A stretch of 38,658 nt of DNA from a virus: IMG/VR virus record IMGVR_UViG_3300005076_000009, one strand, 5' to 3'. The position numbers were made by a program, and so were the translations under genes. Positions 2,206-38,658 of the stretch are shown one piece after another. The notes below the pieces were generated by a model that was not told the DNA's origin, ran no database searches, and worked only from the letters and a program-made list of their open reading frames with translations. Every line of letters starts with the position of its first letter. The stretch's first letter is position 1.

Positions 2206-2403
2206 ATGAACAAGCAAGAGTGGCTAATCGAGATCGGCGCAGCGCAAAAGCGTGTGCGATACCTGGAGACCATTGCGCCGCGCTGCGAGAACTGCATTTT
2301 CTTCGATGCGCACGGCTATTGCGAAAAGTTCGAGGCAGCGCCACCGGATCATGTGCAAAAGTCAGGCTGCGATGGTTGGCAATTTGACGGCGTACCGTTT
2401 TAA
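2206..2403 (+). CDS. Small Cys-rich hypothetical protein (65 aa)
   Basis: The ATG sits 1 nt after the helicase stop, with AGGAG upstream. The protein contains CENC...C...C. Confidence 0.55.
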   Translation: MNKQEWLIEIGAAQKRVRYLETIAPRCENCIFFDAHGYCEKFEAAPPDHVQKSGCDGWQFDGVPF

Positions 2404-2408
2404 TCTAG

Positions 2409-2437
2409 TTGACAGCTTGCAATCCATGCGCGATACT
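2409..2437 (+). promoter_or_regulatory. Sigma70-type promoter TTGACA-17-GATACT
   Basis: -35 at 2409-2414 and -10 at 2432-2437 with a 17-nt spacer. It lies in the only intergenic gap before the low-GC island. Confidence 0.6.
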
Positions 2438-2469
2438 GACACCAGTACCAACGACAAGGAGTAACAACC

Positions 2470-2577
2470 ATGCACCTAATTTTCATTCTGTTGCACCTGA
2501 TTTGCTTTTTCACTCTCCTGCCCGGTCTGGTAGTGACCATTCCGTTGCATATGATCTTTTTGAAGGTGGGTGGCTGA
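2470..2577 (+). CDS. 35-aa hydrophobic peptide (MHLIFILLHLICFFTLLPGLVVTIPLHMIFLKVGG)
   Basis: AAGGAG at 2456-2461 lies 8 nt before the ATG. Its TGA ends 1 nt before the ATG of the ParB-like gene. The ORF is below the 60-aa cutoff of the ORF track. Confidence 0.5.
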   Translation: MHLIFILLHLICFFTLLPGLVVTIPLHMIFLKVGG

Positions 2578-2578
2578 G

Positions 2579-3235
2579 ATGGACATTTCTAGCATCATTC
2601 AGCAGATTAAGGACTTGCCAATTGATGAGAAAGTTGAAGCTATCAATAGCATTCGTTCTCAGCTGCATGAGATTAGCCCATTCAAAACTGAGCCAGTTGA
2701 TTTTGTGCGATGGGTGAAGTCTGACAATGTTCACCAAAATGACTACAACCCGAACAGCGTGGCCCCGCCGGAAATGGAGCTTTTGCATCACTCTATTAAG
2801 AGTGATGGCTACACCCAGCCTATCGTGACGATGCCGCACGATGAGAAGTTCGAAGTAATTGACGGCTTTCATCGTCACAGGGTTGGAAAGGAGTGCCATG
2901 ACATTCAGCAGCGCGTGCACGGATACCTTCCGCTTGTCGCTGTTTCTGCAGATCGATTTGACAAGAACGATCGCATGGCAGCAACAATTCGCCACAACAG
3001 GGCTAGGGGCAAGCACAAAGTCGAAGCAATGTCTGACATTGTGGTTGAGCTTAAACGTCGATTCTGGAGCGATGAAAAAATTGCCAAGGAGCTGGGCATG
3101 GAGCCGGACGAAGTTCTGCGCTTGCAACAGGTAACCGGCCTGGCCACGCTTTTTGCTGATCGCGAGTTTTCCGAAGCGTGGGAAGCGGAATCGTTCACGG
3201 GTGATGACGAACAGGAAATGATTGATGAAGATTAA
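2579..3235 (+). CDS. ParB/Srx N-terminal-domain protein, IbrB-like
   Basis: YNPNSV...VIDGFHRH...RHNRARGKH motifs typical of ParB-like nuclease-domain proteins. The size and the pairing with a PAPS-reductase-family gene fit the family. The track start at 2570 is a GTG; I prefer ATG 2579, which is coupled to the upstream peptide. Confidence 0.7.
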   Translation: MDISSIIQQIKDLPIDEKVEAINSIRSQLHEISPFKTEPVDFVRWVKSDNVHQNDYNPNSVAPPEMELLHHSIKSDGYTQPIVTMPHDEKFEVIDGFHRHRVGKECHDIQQRVHGYLPLVAVSADRFDKNDRMAATIRHNRARGKHKVEAMSDIVVELKRRFWSDEKIAKELGMEPDEVLRLQQVTGLATLFADREFSEAWEAESFTGDDEQEMIDED

Positions 3236-3614
3236 GCGAGTTTTTCACAGGTGGGAGAAATGCGAAGAGTACAAAACAAACATGTGGAGATCGGTTCCAA
3301 TTGAGGCGCGAGACAGATATGTCACTGCATCCAGAAACTTGATGCTTGATTGCGAAGCTTTTGAGTCGGCGATGCGGCGTGCAGTTGATGAGTGGGTATT
3401 CTCGTGCGAGGCGGCACTGACCGCATCGACCATGAATCATCAGGCATGGATTGGGCATGCAGGATGCGCAATAAACCACAATGCCCCAGAAGATTTAACA
3501 AGGCAGGCATGGCGAATGCTGACAAAAGATCAGCAAGATAGGGCAAATGCAGCAGCCGATCGCGCCATAGCATACTGGAAAGACAAGTACATGAGGATGA
3601 TGAAAGATGCCTAA
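3225..3614 (+). CDS. Hypothetical protein (129 aa) embedded between the IbrB-like and IbrA-like genes
   Basis: ATG 3225 has AGGAA 6 nt upstream. It overlaps both neighbours. I recognise no motif. Confidence 0.6.
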   Translation: MKIKRVFHRWEKCEEYKTNMWRSVPIEARDRYVTASRNLMLDCEAFESAMRRAVDEWVFSCEAALTASTMNHQAWIGHAGCAINHNAPEDLTRQAWRMLTKDQQDRANAAADRAIAYWKDKYMRMMKDA

Positions 3615-4836
3615 ACGTGGAATTGGTATTGATGTTTTTACTGCGGCAAAGCAGCGTATCGAATGGACGTTTGACAACTTTGAGCGCATCTATCTTTCAT
3701 TTAGTGCTGGGAAAGACTCTGCTGTAATGCTGCACATGGTTATGGATGAGGCTGCGCGCAGGAATAGAAAGATCGGCGTATTCTTCATTGACTGGGAGTG
3801 CCAGATCGGACTTACCATCGATTTTGCCAAAGAAATGTACGAAAAGTACGCAGAATGGATCGAGCCGTACTGGGTTGCACTTCCAATCAAAACGTGGAAC
3901 ACATGCAGCCAGTACGAGCCTGAATGGACGGCATGGGATACGACAAAGCGTGATCTGTGGGTTCGCCAGCCTGAGAAGATCAGCATTACAGACATGGACT
4001 TTTTCCCGTTTTACTATGAGGGGATGCCGTTCGAGGAGTTTGTACCAGCATTTGGAGAATGGTATGCGCAGGGCAAGTCATGTGCTTGCTTTGTCGGCAT
4101 TCGCGCGGATGAAAGCTTGAACCGTTTCCGCACGGTTGCCAGGTCAGACAAGCCGACCATTGGTGGCAGGATGTGGACAACGAATGCCGTCGCCGATGTG
4201 TGGAACATTTACCCAATCTATGACTGGAAAACCGATGACATATGGACTTACTTCGGCAAAGAGCGCAGGCCGTACAACAAGCTTTATGACCGAATGTATC
4301 AGGCCGGTATGAAAATTAGCCAGATGCGGATATGCGAGCCGTTTGGCGACGAGGCGAGGAAGGGGCTGTGGCTTTATCAGGTGGTTGATCCTGCGATGTG
4401 GGCAAAAGTTTCGCTTCGAGTTGCTGGAGCCAACACCGGAATGCAGTACTGCCAGGAAAAGGGGGCCGTACTGGGCAATCATCACATTGCACTTCCGGAA
4501 GGCCACACGTACGAAAGTTTTGCCAATCACTTGCTGAATACCATGCCGCCAAGAACCGCAGAGCATTACAAAAACAAGCTGGCCGTATATCTGAAATGGT
4601 GGTCAAAGCGCGGATACGAGGATGGAATACCTGACTTTGCCGAAGTCAGACTAGAGAGTGCAGGGAAGGTGCCAAGCTGGCGAAAAATATGCAAAACCTT
4701 CCTGCGCAATGATTACTGGTGCAAAGGCTTGGGTTTTAGCCCAACAAAGAGCAGCGCATACCAAAAGTATACGGAGCTTATGAAGAAGCGACGCGCCGAG
4801 TGGGGAATTTTTAAGCCGGAGGACGCCCAGCTATGA
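3607..4836 (+). CDS. PAPS-reductase-family PP-loop ATP pyrophosphatase, IbrA-like (409 aa)
   Basis: SFSAGKDS PP-loop near the N-terminus and a long C-terminal extension, as in IbrA/DUF3440-type proteins. Confidence 0.75.
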   Translation: MPKRGIGIDVFTAAKQRIEWTFDNFERIYLSFSAGKDSAVMLHMVMDEAARRNRKIGVFFIDWECQIGLTIDFAKEMYEKYAEWIEPYWVALPIKTWNTCSQYEPEWTAWDTTKRDLWVRQPEKISITDMDFFPFYYEGMPFEEFVPAFGEWYAQGKSCACFVGIRADESLNRFRTVARSDKPTIGGRMWTTNAVADVWNIYPIYDWKTDDIWTYFGKERRPYNKLYDRMYQAGMKISQMRICEPFGDEARKGLWLYQVVDPAMWAKVSLRVAGANTGMQYCQEKGAVLGNHHIALPEGHTYESFANHLLNTMPPRTAEHYKNKLAVYLKWWSKRGYEDGIPDFAEVRLESAGKVPSWRKICKTFLRNDYWCKGLGFSPTKSSAYQKYTELMKKRRAEWGIFKPEDAQL

Positions 4837-5141
4837 CCACCGCCGCCCGCCACAAGCAATGGCTAACAGAGCGCTTTAAGTTCGATCTGGCGGCACTTGA
4901 TGCTGCTGGTGATGTGATACGCGCCCACGAGCGCTACGCCGCTGCAAATGGCCTTTGTAGGCCGTGCTTGTGCAGCCAGTCGCATGGCCTTGAAGTGTGG
5001 GTGACTGCGCCGTACAAGGCCAGCGCTGAGAGTGTGAGAGACATAGCCGATGCGCCGGTTTATGTGTGTGAGTTTGAAGGTTTTAACATCAATGTGAGGT
5101 TCGACCCAAATGCAAGTCAAAGTCAAAAAGCTACATCCTGA
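4833..5141 (+). CDS. Hypothetical protein (102 aa)
   Basis: ATGA start/stop overlap with the upstream gene. GC content returns to the genome-typical high level here. Confidence 0.55.
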   Translation: MTTAARHKQWLTERFKFDLAALDAAGDVIRAHERYAAANGLCRPCLCSQSHGLEVWVTAPYKASAESVRDIADAPVYVCEFEGFNINVRFDPNASQSQKATS

Positions 5142-5565: not shown

Positions 5566-5573
5566 AAACCACA

Positions 5574-5595
5574 CCCGCAGAAATGCGGGTTTTTC
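5574..5595 (+). terminator. Rho-independent terminator CCCGCA-GAAA-TGCGGG-TTTTT
   Basis: A perfect 6-bp stem with a GNRA loop and a T-run, immediately after the dut stop. Confidence 0.75.
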
Positions 5596-10807: not shown

Positions 10808-12358
10808 TTATGTCGCCTTGATATATGCGTTCACGTTCACGTCAGAAACGCCGATTGCCGGTGTGGCAAACTCAATAGTCGGGTCGTAGTTGTAGCCGTC
10901 TCGGTAGATCGTGACAAAAGGCGTGGTCGTGTGAGCCACAGCCATGAAGTTATCAAGATACGCAGATGGCCCGCTGTAGAAAGACACGCCCGCACCGTTG
11001 CCAGTCGGCAAAGTGTTTGGATTTGGCATTTTCGTCATCGTGTCGCCTTTGCGCTTGTACACAGATACAAAAGGCGTTGTGCTATGCGCTAAGGCTACAA
11101 ACAATCCATCAGGACTAAAAGATATGCCAACCCCAACACCAGACGGTGAAAGTATTGGATCTTGCAGCTTTGTGAATGTGTCTCCACTTCGCTTATACGT
11201 CGAAAGGAAAGAGTCTCCGCCCAAAGCCAAAGAAAGATAATTACCATCAGGACTAAATGACAATCCAGTAACTGCGGATAACGGCAAAACAGATGGGTTG
11301 GTCAGCTTTGTAAACGTGTCACCACTGCGTTTATAAATCGTGACAAAAGGCGTGGCGTCATGACCAACTGCCAGATATGTAAAATCAGGACTAAATGCCA
11401 CTCCGTAGGCTGTCGTACCTGTCGGTAAAGTTGCTGGGTTGGTCAGCTTTGTAAACGTGTCACCGCTGCGCTTGTAAATGGTGATGAATGGCGTTGTGGA
11501 ATGGGCAACGGCAAGGTACGTGCCATCGCTGCTGAAAGCAGTCGCACGAGCCGCACCAGCTGGCAAGGTTGCTGGATCTGACAGCTTGGTAAAAGTATCA
11601 CCGCTGCGTTTATAAATAGTGACAAAAGGGCTTGTGTCATGCGCTACAGCGAGATACGTACCATCCGCGCTGAATGCCACGCCCCTGCCAGTACCAGTAG
11701 GCAGCGTCGCTGGGTCGGATAACTTGGTGAATGTTTCGCCGCTCCGTTTGTAAATGGTGATGAACGGGCTTGTGTTGTGCGCTACAGCAAGGTATGTGCC
11801 ATCAGTGCTGAAAGCAGATGACGTTGCATTGCCAGTTGGCAAAGTTGCCGGATTGGCAAGCTTGGTGTTCGGCGGCGCCGGATCGTCAAGCAATGCCGCC
11901 AGCGTCGGATATGCCGACTTCAAGTAAACGCTGGCATCCGCCGGTAAATACTCAGGCGACGGCGCGGCGCGTGCCGTCATTAGCACATCGCCAATTGCGG
12001 GGCCGGTAGAGGCCGCCCACTCTACGCCGGTTTCGTCGCTTTTTACGCGCAGTGCTTTCAGCGCATTGCCGACGATGGCCGGAAGCCCAGCCGCAGCTTG
12101 CGCGGCTGCTGCAGCGGCTTCTGCGCTGTTCTTGTAGCTTAGTGCGCTGGCAGCGCTTGCACTGGCTGCACTGGCCTGTGTGGTGGCAGTGCTGGCCGAT
12201 GTGGCAGCGCTGGTTTGCTTGCTTGTTACGTCAGCTTGCAGTGCGTTTGCGTCAGTCACGAAGCCAGGCAGCGCAGCCACGAAAGTGTCAGCAGTGGCGG
12301 CAAAGGTCGCCGGATCTTGCGTTCGCTGCGGTGCTGGCGGTAGTGGATTCATTGCCAT
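10808..12358 (-). CDS. Tail fibre / receptor-binding protein with Ala/Ser-rich N-terminus, collar-like segment and 7-blade PD40/WD40-like beta-propeller
   Basis: Seven units of about 46 aa follow the pattern P.TLPTG....AFS.DGTYLAVAH.T.PF.TIYKRSGDTFTKL. The collar-like segment reads GDVLMTARAAPSPEYLPADASVYLKSAYPTLAALL. Confidence 0.65.
   Translation of the reverse strand: MAMNPLPPAPQRTQDPATFAATADTFVAALPGFVTDANALQADVTSKQTSAATSASTATTQASAASASAASALSYKNSAEAAAAAAQAAAGLPAIVGNALKALRVKSDETGVEWAASTGPAIGDVLMTARAAPSPEYLPADASVYLKSAYPTLAALLDDPAPPNTKLANPATLPTGNATSSAFSTDGTYLAVAHNTSPFITIYKRSGETFTKLSDPATLPTGTGRGVAFSADGTYLAVAHDTSPFVTIYKRSGDTFTKLSDPATLPAGAARATAFSSDGTYLAVAHSTTPFITIYKRSGDTFTKLTNPATLPTGTTAYGVAFSPDFTYLAVGHDATPFVTIYKRSGDTFTKLTNPSVLPLSAVTGLSFSPDGNYLSLALGGDSFLSTYKRSGDTFTKLQDPILSPSGVGVGISFSPDGLFVALAHSTTPFVSVYKRKGDTMTKMPNPNTLPTGNGAGVSFYSGPSAYLDNFMAVAHTTTPFVTIYRDGYNYDPTIEFATPAIGVSDVNVNAYIKAT
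10885..11854 (-). repeat. Seven tandem repeats of about 138 bp encoding propeller blades
   Basis: The periodicity is visible at both the DNA and protein level (for example the recurring ggtcagctttgtaaacgtgtcacc). Confidence 0.7.
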
Positions 12359-33856: not shown

Positions 33857-34205
33857 TGTGACAAACTTTTCCGCATGAGTTGTGACAACGTGACAACCCA
33901 GTCTAAAGACTGGGGTTTTGTCACACTTTGTCACAAGCTCATTTTTTGCCCCCTTTTGTGACAAAAATGACAAATGATTTTTGTCACAGCTTGTCACAAA
34001 TTGTCATAAACCCAATGAAATCAATGGTTTACGACGCTTTCTGATTTTTGTCACAGCTTGTCACAGCTTGTCACATTGTGACAAAACCGTTTTGTCACAA
34101 GCCCATTTTTGCCTGTGGATAAGTCTGTGGATAACCCTGTGGATAACTCTTTTGTCATACTTGTGACAAGTTGTGACAAAGTGTGACAAAACCGTTTTTG
34201 TCACA
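33857..34205. repeat. Iteron array (palindromic TTGTSACAA units), putative origin of replication
   Basis: By my count there are 16 perfect TGTCACA/TGTGACA heptamers. Triplets with 10-bp phasing start at 33982, 34049 and 34162. Two palindromes of 23-24 bp (TGTGACAAAACCGTTTTGTCACA) lie at 34077-34099 and 34182-34205. Confidence 0.75.
34114..34146. promoter_or_regulatory. Three tandem perfect DnaA boxes (TGTGGATAA = complement of TTATCCACA)
   Basis: Boxes at 34114-34122, 34126-34134 and 34138-34146, spaced 12 bp apart. Confidence 0.8.
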
Positions 34206-38180: not shown

Positions 38181-38658
38181 ATGCAGATACCTGAACCGAT
38201 GAATAGCACGGTCAATGCCGTGTACGAAGCCATTGAGCAGCGCACCGACCAGTCGCCGCGCTCGCACTTGGGCGCAAGCCAGATTGGCCACGGCTGTGAC
38301 CGCTTCCTGTGGCTGTCTTTCCGCTGGGCGGTGCGTGAGAAATTCAGTGGCCGCATGCTGCGCCTGTTCCGCCGTGGGCAGGAGGAGGAGCAATATGTGG
38401 TGGCGGATCTTCGCGCCGCAGGCATGGACGTGGTAGAGATTGATCCCGAAACTGGCCGCCAGTTCAATTTTGGCTCAGGCCATTTCGGCGGATCGATGGA
38501 CGGCATCATCAATTCCGGCGTGCCGGAGTCGCCAAAGACGCCGCACGTGCTGGAGATCAAGACACACAGCCTGAAGTCCTTTAAAGACCTGGTGAAGCAC
38601 GGTGTAGAGCAGGCCAAGCCGATGCACTATGCGCAGATGCAGATTTACATGCACGCCA
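38181..38658 (+). CDS. Cas4-like PD-(D/E)XK exonuclease, 5' part (continues at 1..600)
   Basis: ATG 38181 opens a frame that runs to the window end and is in frame with 1..600. No clear SD is present. Confidence 0.75.
   Translation, partial: MQIPEPMNSTVNAVYEAIEQRTDQSPRSHLGASQIGHGCDRFLWLSFRWAVREKFSGRMLRLFRRGQEEEQYVVADLRAAGMDVVEIDPETGRQFNFGSGHFGGSMDGIINSGVPESPKTPHVLEIKTHSLKSFKDLVKHGVEQAKPMHYAQMQIYMHA
38568..38658. repeat. Terminal overlap, identical to 1..91
   Basis: Exact 91-nt identity with the window start. Confidence 0.95.

Follow-up and report, generated by a model that had tools for sequence, protein, structure and literature searches.

A 38,658-nucleotide (nt) stretch of phage DNA, IMG/VR virus record IMGVR_UViG_3300005076_000009 (here called the window), carries at positions 2409 to 4836 a cassette in which genes for an IbrB-like and an IbrA-like protein flank a 129-amino-acid (129-aa) open reading frame (ORF), which we call p129. 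By comparative genomics, conserved gene linkage and three kinds of gene fusion mark p129 as a true third subunit of IbrB/IbrA-type modules, carried almost only by phages. Whereas the IbrA/IbrB pair is already known and widely annotated, the three-gene form with p129 is the new part. We infer that DNA modification or anti-restriction is the best-supported function of the cassette.

p129 is linked and fused to IbrB- and IbrA-like proteins

A preliminary description of this DNA, made by a model from the letters and a list of ORFs, had guessed that the 129-aa ORF was an additional component of the cassette, and the linkage and fusion data support the guess more strongly than it was made. A word-indexed search returned 192 p129 homologues, and 751 clusters at 50% identity were found among 1.84 billion representatives. 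The family occurs almost only on phage and metagenome contigs, the 185,579 species-representative genomes that we scanned giving a single match, on a 6-kb contig of a metagenome-assembled genome. With only this one match, we rejected a host prophage origin for the cassette, and carriage of the three-gene variant on prophages or plasmid-prophages appears rare. In the 62 loci retrieved with p129 (4 isolated phages and 58 IMG/VR loci), it adjoins IbrB- and IbrA-like genes wherever the contig reaches far enough. Starting instead from IbrA (the 80 best IMG/VR loci), we found an IbrB-like partner in 78 of the loci, an adjacent p129 in 57, and a two-gene IbrA-IbrB set in 22.

The same proteins also occur joined. 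p129 is fused to the C terminus of IbrB, following the ParB domain and a helix-turn-helix (HTH)-like segment, in single ORFs of L176, L178, and L182-L184. In P0241, the fusion partner of p129 is a GNAT-like protein that matches the stand-alone GNAT-like gene (E = 2e-33), and in P0334, the partner is the C-terminal part of DUF3440 (E = 3e-12; the Pfam DUF3440 match is weak).

Members of the p129 family are helical, about 105 to 200 aa long, and encoded beside IbrB and IbrA, and they share a W-x2-S-x-E ... N-x3-W-x-G-x-A core (W57, S60, E62, N71, W75, G77, and A79). The residues conserved family-wide are mainly Trp, Ala, and Gly, with the addition of Ser60, Glu62, and Asn71. No Pfam, PHROG, NCBIfam, or PADLOC family matched p129, even when 37 members were scanned singly, and it had no sequence relative in PDB. 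The AlphaFold2 model is all-helical and of high confidence (predicted local distance difference test [pLDDT] score of 95.9); with this model, Foldseek gave a best PDB match of E = 1.3 and, in BFVD, a match to one family member only.

We rejected p129 as a metal or active-site protein because His72, His78, and Cys81, which are kept in the close subfamily, are replaced in diverged and fused forms. We also rejected it as a diverged piece of IbrA, since profile-profile comparison was negative (probability of 0.3%). Two small ORFs 5' of IbrA in Chlorobiaceae phage CV-1-33, considered as further members, are not homologous to p129. We read p129 as a probable recognition or bridging domain and not as a metal enzyme. 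Six homologues of 174 to 190 aa (P0297, P0371, P0315, P0384, P0374, and P0291) carry a basic, Ser/Arg-rich C-terminal tail of 50 to 60 residues, in which an R-(D/N)-T-(R/G)-R-S motif recurs and which has a ...PWLF end.

The IbrA-like and IbrB-like proteins

The preliminary description had called the other two proteins an IbrB/IbrA-like pair, and by homology their membership of the family is well supported. The IbrA-like protein is 49.1% identical, over 97% of its length, to IbrA of Escherichia phage PhiR5_2 (E = 2e-120), and the IbrB-like protein is 51% identical to the annotated IbrB of the same phage (E = 1e-72); the best PHROG assignments are to PHROG 2302 (E = 5e-90) and PHROG 2159 (E = 1.3e-70), respectively. 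The domain models that had been proposed as a check gave a mixed outcome. Both IbrA models scored well above their gathering scores (68.8 bits versus 22.5 and E = 7.7e-19 for PAPS_reduct [PF01507]; 124.6 bits versus 25 and E = 4.8e-36 for DUF3440 [PF11922]), whereas Pfam ParB_N, at 25.4 bits for the IbrB-like protein, fell marginally below its cutoff of 26.3. IbrA-like proteins matched in 224 of 50,697 phage records, and more than 7,800 homologues were found at E < 1e-10 in metagenome proteins.

We aligned 12 diverse IbrA proteins from phages of Proteobacteria, Actinobacteria, Firmicutes, Cyanobacteria, and Chlorobi. The S-x-G-K-D-S PP-loop (S33, G35, K36, D37, and S38) was invariant in all 12, as were about 45 other positions, and no cysteine was, Cys243 of the window protein being Ala or Asp in the others. 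True PAPS reductases aligned with a degenerate SFG PP-loop, whereas IbrA retains an ATP-type loop. PAPS reductases require a C-terminal catalytic cysteine of the ECGLH type, which defines the family, and DndC requires cysteine ligands. The lack of any invariant cysteine thus makes PAPS-reductase or DndC-type sulfur chemistry unlikely for IbrA. The CysH equivalog models also remained far off (49.6 bits versus 154 for NF002537; 47.8 versus 254.2 for TIGR02057). The AlphaFold2 model of IbrA (pLDDT of 69.9 overall) is reliable only in the N-terminal domain, which matches the folds of CysH, FAD synthase, CysD, LarE, and NcsA. We discarded the fold of the DUF3440 half as modeled, which is of low confidence; a fold search with the IbrA model accordingly gave only PAPS-reductase-family matches. 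We take IbrA to be the probable site of an adenylyl-transfer step in which ATP is cleaved between its alpha and beta phosphates.

Alignment of 11 diverse IbrB proteins revealed invariant NDYNPN, DGxHR (DGFHR in the window), and TIRHNRARGxH motifs, followed by the HTH-like segment. The IbrB domain also matches ParB domains that are fused to phage DNA methyltransferases (phrog_498, E = 6.6e-9). Against the partition ParB model TIGR00180, it scored 26.5 bits versus a cutoff of 58.45, and no ParA partner was found among the neighboring genes examined. Directly 5' of its IbrB-p129-IbrA set, Pseudomonas phage Amjad_SA encodes a 296-aa protein that contains a ParB HTH domain (PF17762, E = 6.7e-9; L001:3113-4003); this phage has a second ParB-related gene adjoining the module.

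Gene orders and companion enzymes in other phages

The same three families form one block in Amjad_SA, Microcystis phage Mwe-JY13, Mycobacterium phage Gaia/Nebkiss (gp103-107), and Pseudoalteromonas phage XCL1123, in the records of which p129 is annotated as "hypothetical" or, wrongly, as ParB. The closest three-gene set to that of the window is in Amjad_SA, with identities of 79% for IbrA, 70% for IbrB, and 57% for p129. Gaia and XCL1123 differ from the window in having the type-B architecture (the three gene orders, types A to C, are given in Table 1).

Other enzymes have joined the module in some lineages. An ectoine-synthase-type cupin forms the N terminus of IbrB in 18 of 18 type-B loci (PF06339, E = 1.3e-32), and 22 of 148 loci have a GNAT-like gene, located between p129 and IbrA or close by. 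That the module has taken up cupin and GNAT-like enzymes argues for a catalytic pathway over a purely regulatory one. On one viral contig (L145:1137-5203), a two-gene IbrA-IbrB pair is followed directly by a three-gene set, IbrB-p129-IbrA. Both variants can thus be present together, and perhaps neither makes the other superfluous.

A superfamily 2 (SF2) helicase gene (ResIII plus Helicase_C) often adjoins the module (L001, L067, L068, L004, L024, L037-L039, and L042), sometimes with overlapping stop and start codons. A helicase gene abuts the module in Amjad_SA and in phages of Clostridium and Lactobacillus.

Comparison with known systems

The IbrA and IbrB proteins of Escherichia coli (the IbrAB island and prophages) have the same domains as the window proteins, namely PAPS_reduct plus DUF3440 and ParB/Srx plus HTH, and are likewise encoded by adjacent, translationally coupled genes. 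The canonical E. coli pair differs in consisting of two genes in the order IbrA-IbrB, without p129, whereas the window has IbrB-p129-IbrA. That pair is known only by an expression phenotype, and its SEED subsystem is named "co-activators of prophage gene expression." A similar annotation is attached to the E. coli K-12 pair YbdN/YbdM, whose function is unknown (PMC9068703).

A ParB-superfamily protein acts with a PAPS-reductase-family PP-loop enzyme on DNA in DndB/DndC, SspD, and the BrxP type 4 BREX system (PMC10853773). The preliminary description had drawn an analogy to DndC, SspD, and BrxP, which stands at the level of the fold and fails at the level of the family. DndC and BrxP show weak local similarity to the window IbrA (E = 3.6e-7 and E = 1.6e-6), the PADLOC models of DndC, BrxP, and SspD give short local matches only, and IbrA scores 27.7 bits against a cutoff of 290.4 for DndC (TIGR03183), an order of magnitude short. 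No cysteines that could carry an Fe-S cluster or persulfide are conserved in IbrA, and the absence of an invariant cysteine argues against phosphorothioation-type sulfur chemistry. The DndA/D/E, SspA/B/C, and BREX partners are missing as well; the module has helicase, exonuclease, dUTPase, and genes of unknown function as neighbors. Finally, the module occupies an accessory slot of phages and not a defense island of the host.

Two further systems offer partial parallels. DpdB, a ParB-like NTPase, assists a DNA-modifying enzyme in 7-deazaguanine insertion (PMC12839542), and we use DpdA/DpdB as a working analogy for the way in which IbrB might assist IbrA. The likeness does not extend to DpdA itself, which is a tRNA-guanine-transglycosylase homologue and not a PP-loop enzyme; none was seen among the genes examined here. 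In Vibrio crassostreae phages, a fusion of a PAPS domain to Dam confers resistance to Dnd (bioRxiv 10.1101/2021.05.05.442762). Like the IbrA of the module, this protein has a phage-borne, horizontally exchanged PAPS-reductase-family domain, but it is a methyltransferase fusion that lacks DUF3440, a ParB partner, and p129, and the window IbrA matches its type (PHROG 424) at E = 8.9e-17, versus 5e-90 for PHROG 2302.

The cassette is an accessory insertion

That the cassette is an accessory element inserted in a replication/recombination operon, as the preliminary description had held, was borne out both by its composition and by its absence from relatives with the same backbone. The stretch from 2409 to 4836 has a G+C content of 49.5%, versus 56.1% for the window, a moderate dip of ~6.5 points. 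It is the lowest-GC 2.4-kb stretch of the window (0.28% of equal-sized windows are equally low). The G+C content at third codon positions (GC3) is 0.52 to 0.58 in the three module genes, compared to 0.69 in the helicase gene and 0.75 in the Cas4-like exonuclease gene. Since GC3 is lower too, amino acid composition is not the whole explanation of the dip. The hand counts of G+C on which a compositional break at the cassette borders had been claimed (25/60, 25/60, and 41/60) were exact. The dip is real, though moderate, but its right border is gradual (0.54 in the 102-aa ORF and 0.58 in the dUTPase gene).

The GC of the module follows that of its flanks among 38 loci (r = 0.93), with a lag mainly in higher-GC phages; it is more than 3 points under the flanks in 10 of the 38 loci and more than 3 points over them in none. 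Phages carrying the module range from 36 to 62% GC. The window is an extreme case of this tendency, and together with the lower GC3, this is consistent with the cassette having entered a variable slot fairly recently.

Thirty-five IMG/VR relatives share the Sak4-SSB-Cas4 exonuclease-helicase backbone (helicase identities of 25 to 70%, with 28 of the 35 at 52 to 70%), and in none of them was the module found within 7 kb. One relative (L039) carries a type-B module on the opposite side of the exonuclease, and the stretch 3' of the helicase varies among these phages. A 12-kb megablast query against the 50,697 phage records found no near-identical phage.

Layout of the cassette and its surroundings

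The ORF coordinates and overlaps, the SFSAGKDS motif, and the TTGACA-17-GATACT site of the preliminary description were all exact. The IbrB-like gene overlaps the 129-aa ORF by 11 nt, and the latter overlaps the 409-aa ORF by 8 nt. The claim that the cassette is "self-promoted" was not supported. Six promoter-like sites were observed in 9 kb versus 5.8 ± 2.4 expected from shuffled sequences, so that the consensus match itself is no better than chance, and no terminator-like site separates the upstream helicase operon from the cassette, into which read-through is likely. A promoter at 2409-2437 is nonetheless plausible because the candidate lies in the sole intergenic gap of the operon. The transcription unit probably ends at the first terminator-like hairpin 3' of the cassette (Table 1).

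The 35-aa ORF that precedes the IbrB-like gene is probably genuine, a gene for a small membrane protein of this phage that lies outside the conserved module. Its GC3 is 0.64 in frame, compared to 0.25 at codon position 2, and it had no match in protein-family scans. The preliminary description had counted it as a component, a "leader peptide," and we rejected that role because no comparable ORF precedes the ParB-like gene in 29 related loci. The 102-aa ORF downstream has no family match, and we rejected it too as a component, as it has no homologue in the 62 module loci or the 35 backbone relatives. The 65-aa Cys-rich ORF upstream was absent beside the module in other loci.

The circular phage genome is 38,567 bp, the window having an identical 91-nt direct repeat at 1-91 and 38568-38658. 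The early genes on the + strand are those for Sak4, SSB, the Cas4-like exonuclease, the SF2 helicase, the cassette proteins, and dUTPase; the - strand encodes the structural and lysis proteins, a RusA-like resolvase, and a primase. Between the RusA-like and primase genes, TTGTCACA/TGTGACAA repeats, direct and inverted, are dense at 33912-34193 and include complementary 23-nt arms (up to 100%). The cluster probably serves as an origin of replication or an array of operators, and it could also be a binding site for a ParB-type protein. Elsewhere, a 138-nt unit is present in 5 to 6 diverged tandem copies at 10905-11817, inside a 516-aa ORF on the - strand (10808-12358), coincident with the second low-GC spot of the window (0.44 to 0.47); it probably encodes a repeated domain of a tail fiber or decoration protein.

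Table 1. Coordinates of the cassette, its neighbors, and related arrangements in other phages
Feature	Position	Strand	Remarks
IbrB-like protein, 218 aa	2579..3235	+	ParB/Srx-type N-terminal domain plus HTH-like segment (IAKELGMEPDEVLRLQQVTGL); ATG start, alternative GTG at 2570
p129, 129 aa	3225..3614	+	All-helical; unannotated family
IbrA-like protein, 409 aa	3607..4836	+	N-terminal PP-loop adenine-nucleotide alpha-hydrolase domain (PAPS-reductase family) plus C-terminal DUF3440; SFSAGKDS at residues 31-38
Sigma-70-like promoter match TTGACA-N17-GATACT	2409..2437	+	66-nt gap after 65-aa ORF; consensus 10/12
35-aa hydrophobic ORF (MHLIFILLHLICFFTLLPGLVVTIPLHMIFLKVGG)	2470..2577	+	AAGGAG Shine-Dalgarno at 2456-2461, 8 nt 5' of ATG
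102-aa ORF	4833..5141	+	ATGA overlap with stop of 409-aa ORF; translationally coupled
First terminator-like hairpin 3' of cassette	5573..5590	+	After dUTPase gene; 7-pair stem, then T run
65-aa Cys-rich ORF (CENC...C...C)	2206-2403		Between helicase and cassette; PHROG 23504, function unknown, E = 2.8e-8
Cas4-like exonuclease ORF, 328 aa	ATG 38181, stop 600		Spans circle junction
Type A gene order	Window, Amjad_SA, Mwe-JY13		IbrB-p129-IbrA
Type B gene order	Gaia gp103-107, XCL1123, 16 IMG/VR loci		IbrA, cupin::IbrB, p129, small separate ORF copying C-terminal part of DUF3440 (IbrA residues ~320-400)
Type-B loci	L002 (Mycobacterium phage Gaia gp103-107), L003, L036-L050, L059, L060
Type C gene order	Many IMG/VR loci		p129-IbrA-IbrB
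IbrB::p129 fusion ORFs	L176:1478-3049; L183:2829-3986
GNAT-like gene, 131 aa	L027:6362-6757 and 21 other loci		Weak Pfam match

Proposed function and alternatives

We propose that the phage acquired the cassette as an accessory early gene set for an IbrB/IbrA-type enzyme complex that has three subunits and depends on ATP. IbrB would bind nucleotide and DNA and place the complex. IbrA would spend ATP on adenylylating a target group (a nucleobase carbonyl or a phosphate), as the ATP-using PP-loop enzymes TilS, QueC, and CysD do, and a nucleophile would then replace the group; because IbrA has no conserved cysteine, the chemistry would not be that of a reductase or sulfurtransferase. p129 would bridge IbrB and IbrA as the domain that recognizes the substrate or a partner. 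In other phages, the product might be elaborated by the optional GNAT-like protein or by the ectoine-synthase-type cupin fused to IbrB. The module would in this way covalently modify phage DNA (less probably, another nucleic acid) early in infection and so evade restriction or other defenses.

DNA is suggested as the substrate by the ParB domain and HTH-like segment of IbrB; by the helicase, exonuclease, and recombination genes in the neighborhood; by the likeness of IbrB to methyltransferase-fused ParB domains (phrog_498); and by the analogies to DndB/DndC and DpdB/DpdA. A precedent that points the same way is the phage PAPS-domain protein that counters Dnd (bioRxiv 10.1101/2021.05.05.442762). 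A covalent modification of nucleic acid, most probably DNA, that is made by the three proteins in these roles and acts against host defense is the explanation that we favor, tentatively, and it may quite possibly be right.

Several points weigh against it. None of the computations showed DNA to be modified, and they turned up neither a substrate nor a nucleophile donor or specificity element. Confidence in the DUF3440 half of the IbrA model is low (pLDDT of 69.9 overall), which leaves DNA binding by IbrA a conjecture. For p129, no fold relative could be recognized, so its role is read from linkage and fusions only. The GNAT match is below the Pfam cutoff (E = 9e-5) and makes for a weak assignment. 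PP-loop enzymes act on tRNA and small molecules more often than on DNA. The closeness to replication genes may simply reflect the usual site of early accessory genes in phages. To our knowledge, activation of eib is the only genetic phenotype known for IbrAB. Sandt et al. reportedly described it in 2002 as activation of prophage eib gene expression, which could mean a regulatory role.

A bolder form of the proposal, which we regard as doubtful, would make IbrB-p129-IbrA a widespread machine, carried almost only by phages, for installing an undescribed covalent DNA modification by adenylylation. In it, p129 would be a new fold that recognizes the base or the donor, and in some lineages, a GNAT-like acyltransferase or an ectoine-synthase-type cyclase would tailor the product. 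For instance, a pyrimidine or purine carbonyl might be activated in the manner of TilS and then attacked by an amine donor.

Of the competing explanations, the one that survives best, unlikely as we judge it to be, is that the complex adenylylates or degrades a free nucleotide, cofactor, or immune signal and thereby disarms a defense or makes a modified precursor. The closest fold relatives of the IbrA N-terminal domain (PAPS/APS reductase, CysD, FMN adenylyltransferase, and LarE) act on small molecules, ParB/Srx proteins include NTPases and phosphotransferases (PMC10853773, PMC12839542), ectoine synthase and GNAT enzymes are typically small-molecule enzymes, and a dUTPase is encoded in the same operon. 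Such a role does not sit well with the HTH-like segment of IbrB, which is as in DNA-bound ParB proteins, and the module is linked not to metabolic genes but to helicase and exonuclease genes, with no transporter or precursor-pathway genes linked to it.

It is rather improbable that IbrB, as a ParB/KorB-like DNA-binding protein, acts with IbrA and p129 to co-activate the transcription of phage or host genes or to counter their silencing, although this is how IbrAB was first defined genetically and how the family is named in databases ("co-activator of prophage gene expression"). The HTH-like segment that follows the ParB domain of IbrB would suit such a function, and in K-12, the YbdN/YbdM operon is repressed by the LysR-type YbdO, YbdM being a predicted transcription factor (PMC9068703). 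What regulation leaves unexplained is the strictly intact PP-loop of IbrA and the about 45 other positions that are invariant across very different hosts, the invariant, enzyme-like DGxHR and RHNRARG motifs of IbrB, and the recruited cupin and GNAT-like enzymes. Moreover, activation of eib could come indirectly from an enzymatic change in DNA.

We consider tRNA modification very unlikely. IbrA would in that case act on host or phage tRNA like TilS, TtcA, or NcsA, for instance, in evading anticodon nucleases or retuning translation, and it is true that many ATP-using PP-loop enzymes modify tRNA and that NcsA is among the fold matches of IbrA. Protein-family scans of the three proteins found no RNA-binding domain, however, the partner is a ParB/HTH-type protein with DNA-metabolism genes as neighbors, and the sulfur-relay cysteines and Fe-S ligands typical of tRNA thiolases are not conserved in IbrA. 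Most improbable of all is a replication or partition accessory in which IbrB would be a ParB-like clamp (for segregation, origin handling, or packaging) and IbrA an auxiliary ATPase: despite the position of the module within a replication/recombination operon and the iteron-like TTGTCACA repeat cluster at 33912-34193, IbrB falls far short of the partition ParB model and has no ParA among the neighboring genes examined, the module is dispensable for the backbone, being absent from 35 relatives that share it, and it is nearly absent from cellular genomes, with prophage or plasmid-prophage carriage appearing rare.

Significance

In the searchable literature, no biochemistry is defined for IbrA or IbrB, and we found no description of the p129 three-subunit variant, the p129 fusions, or the cupin and GNAT-like companions. 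IbrA/IbrB-type pairs occur in phages of many phyla. For these, p129 gives an experimental handle in the form of a three-protein complex or a natural IbrB::p129 fusion, the cupin and GNAT-like companions hint at the chemistry, and cultured carriers (Amjad_SA, Gaia, XCL1123, and Mwe-JY13) exist for nucleoside mass spectrometry. Even if the module turns out to have neither a new DNA modification activity nor an anti-defense activity, the misleading annotations "PAPS reductase" and "partition protein" are corrected. If it does have such an activity, it would represent a new class of phage counter-defense and possibly supply a tool enzyme, and an undescribed DNA modification would make the "co-activator" phenotype of IbrAB, known for 20 years, an indirect consequence.

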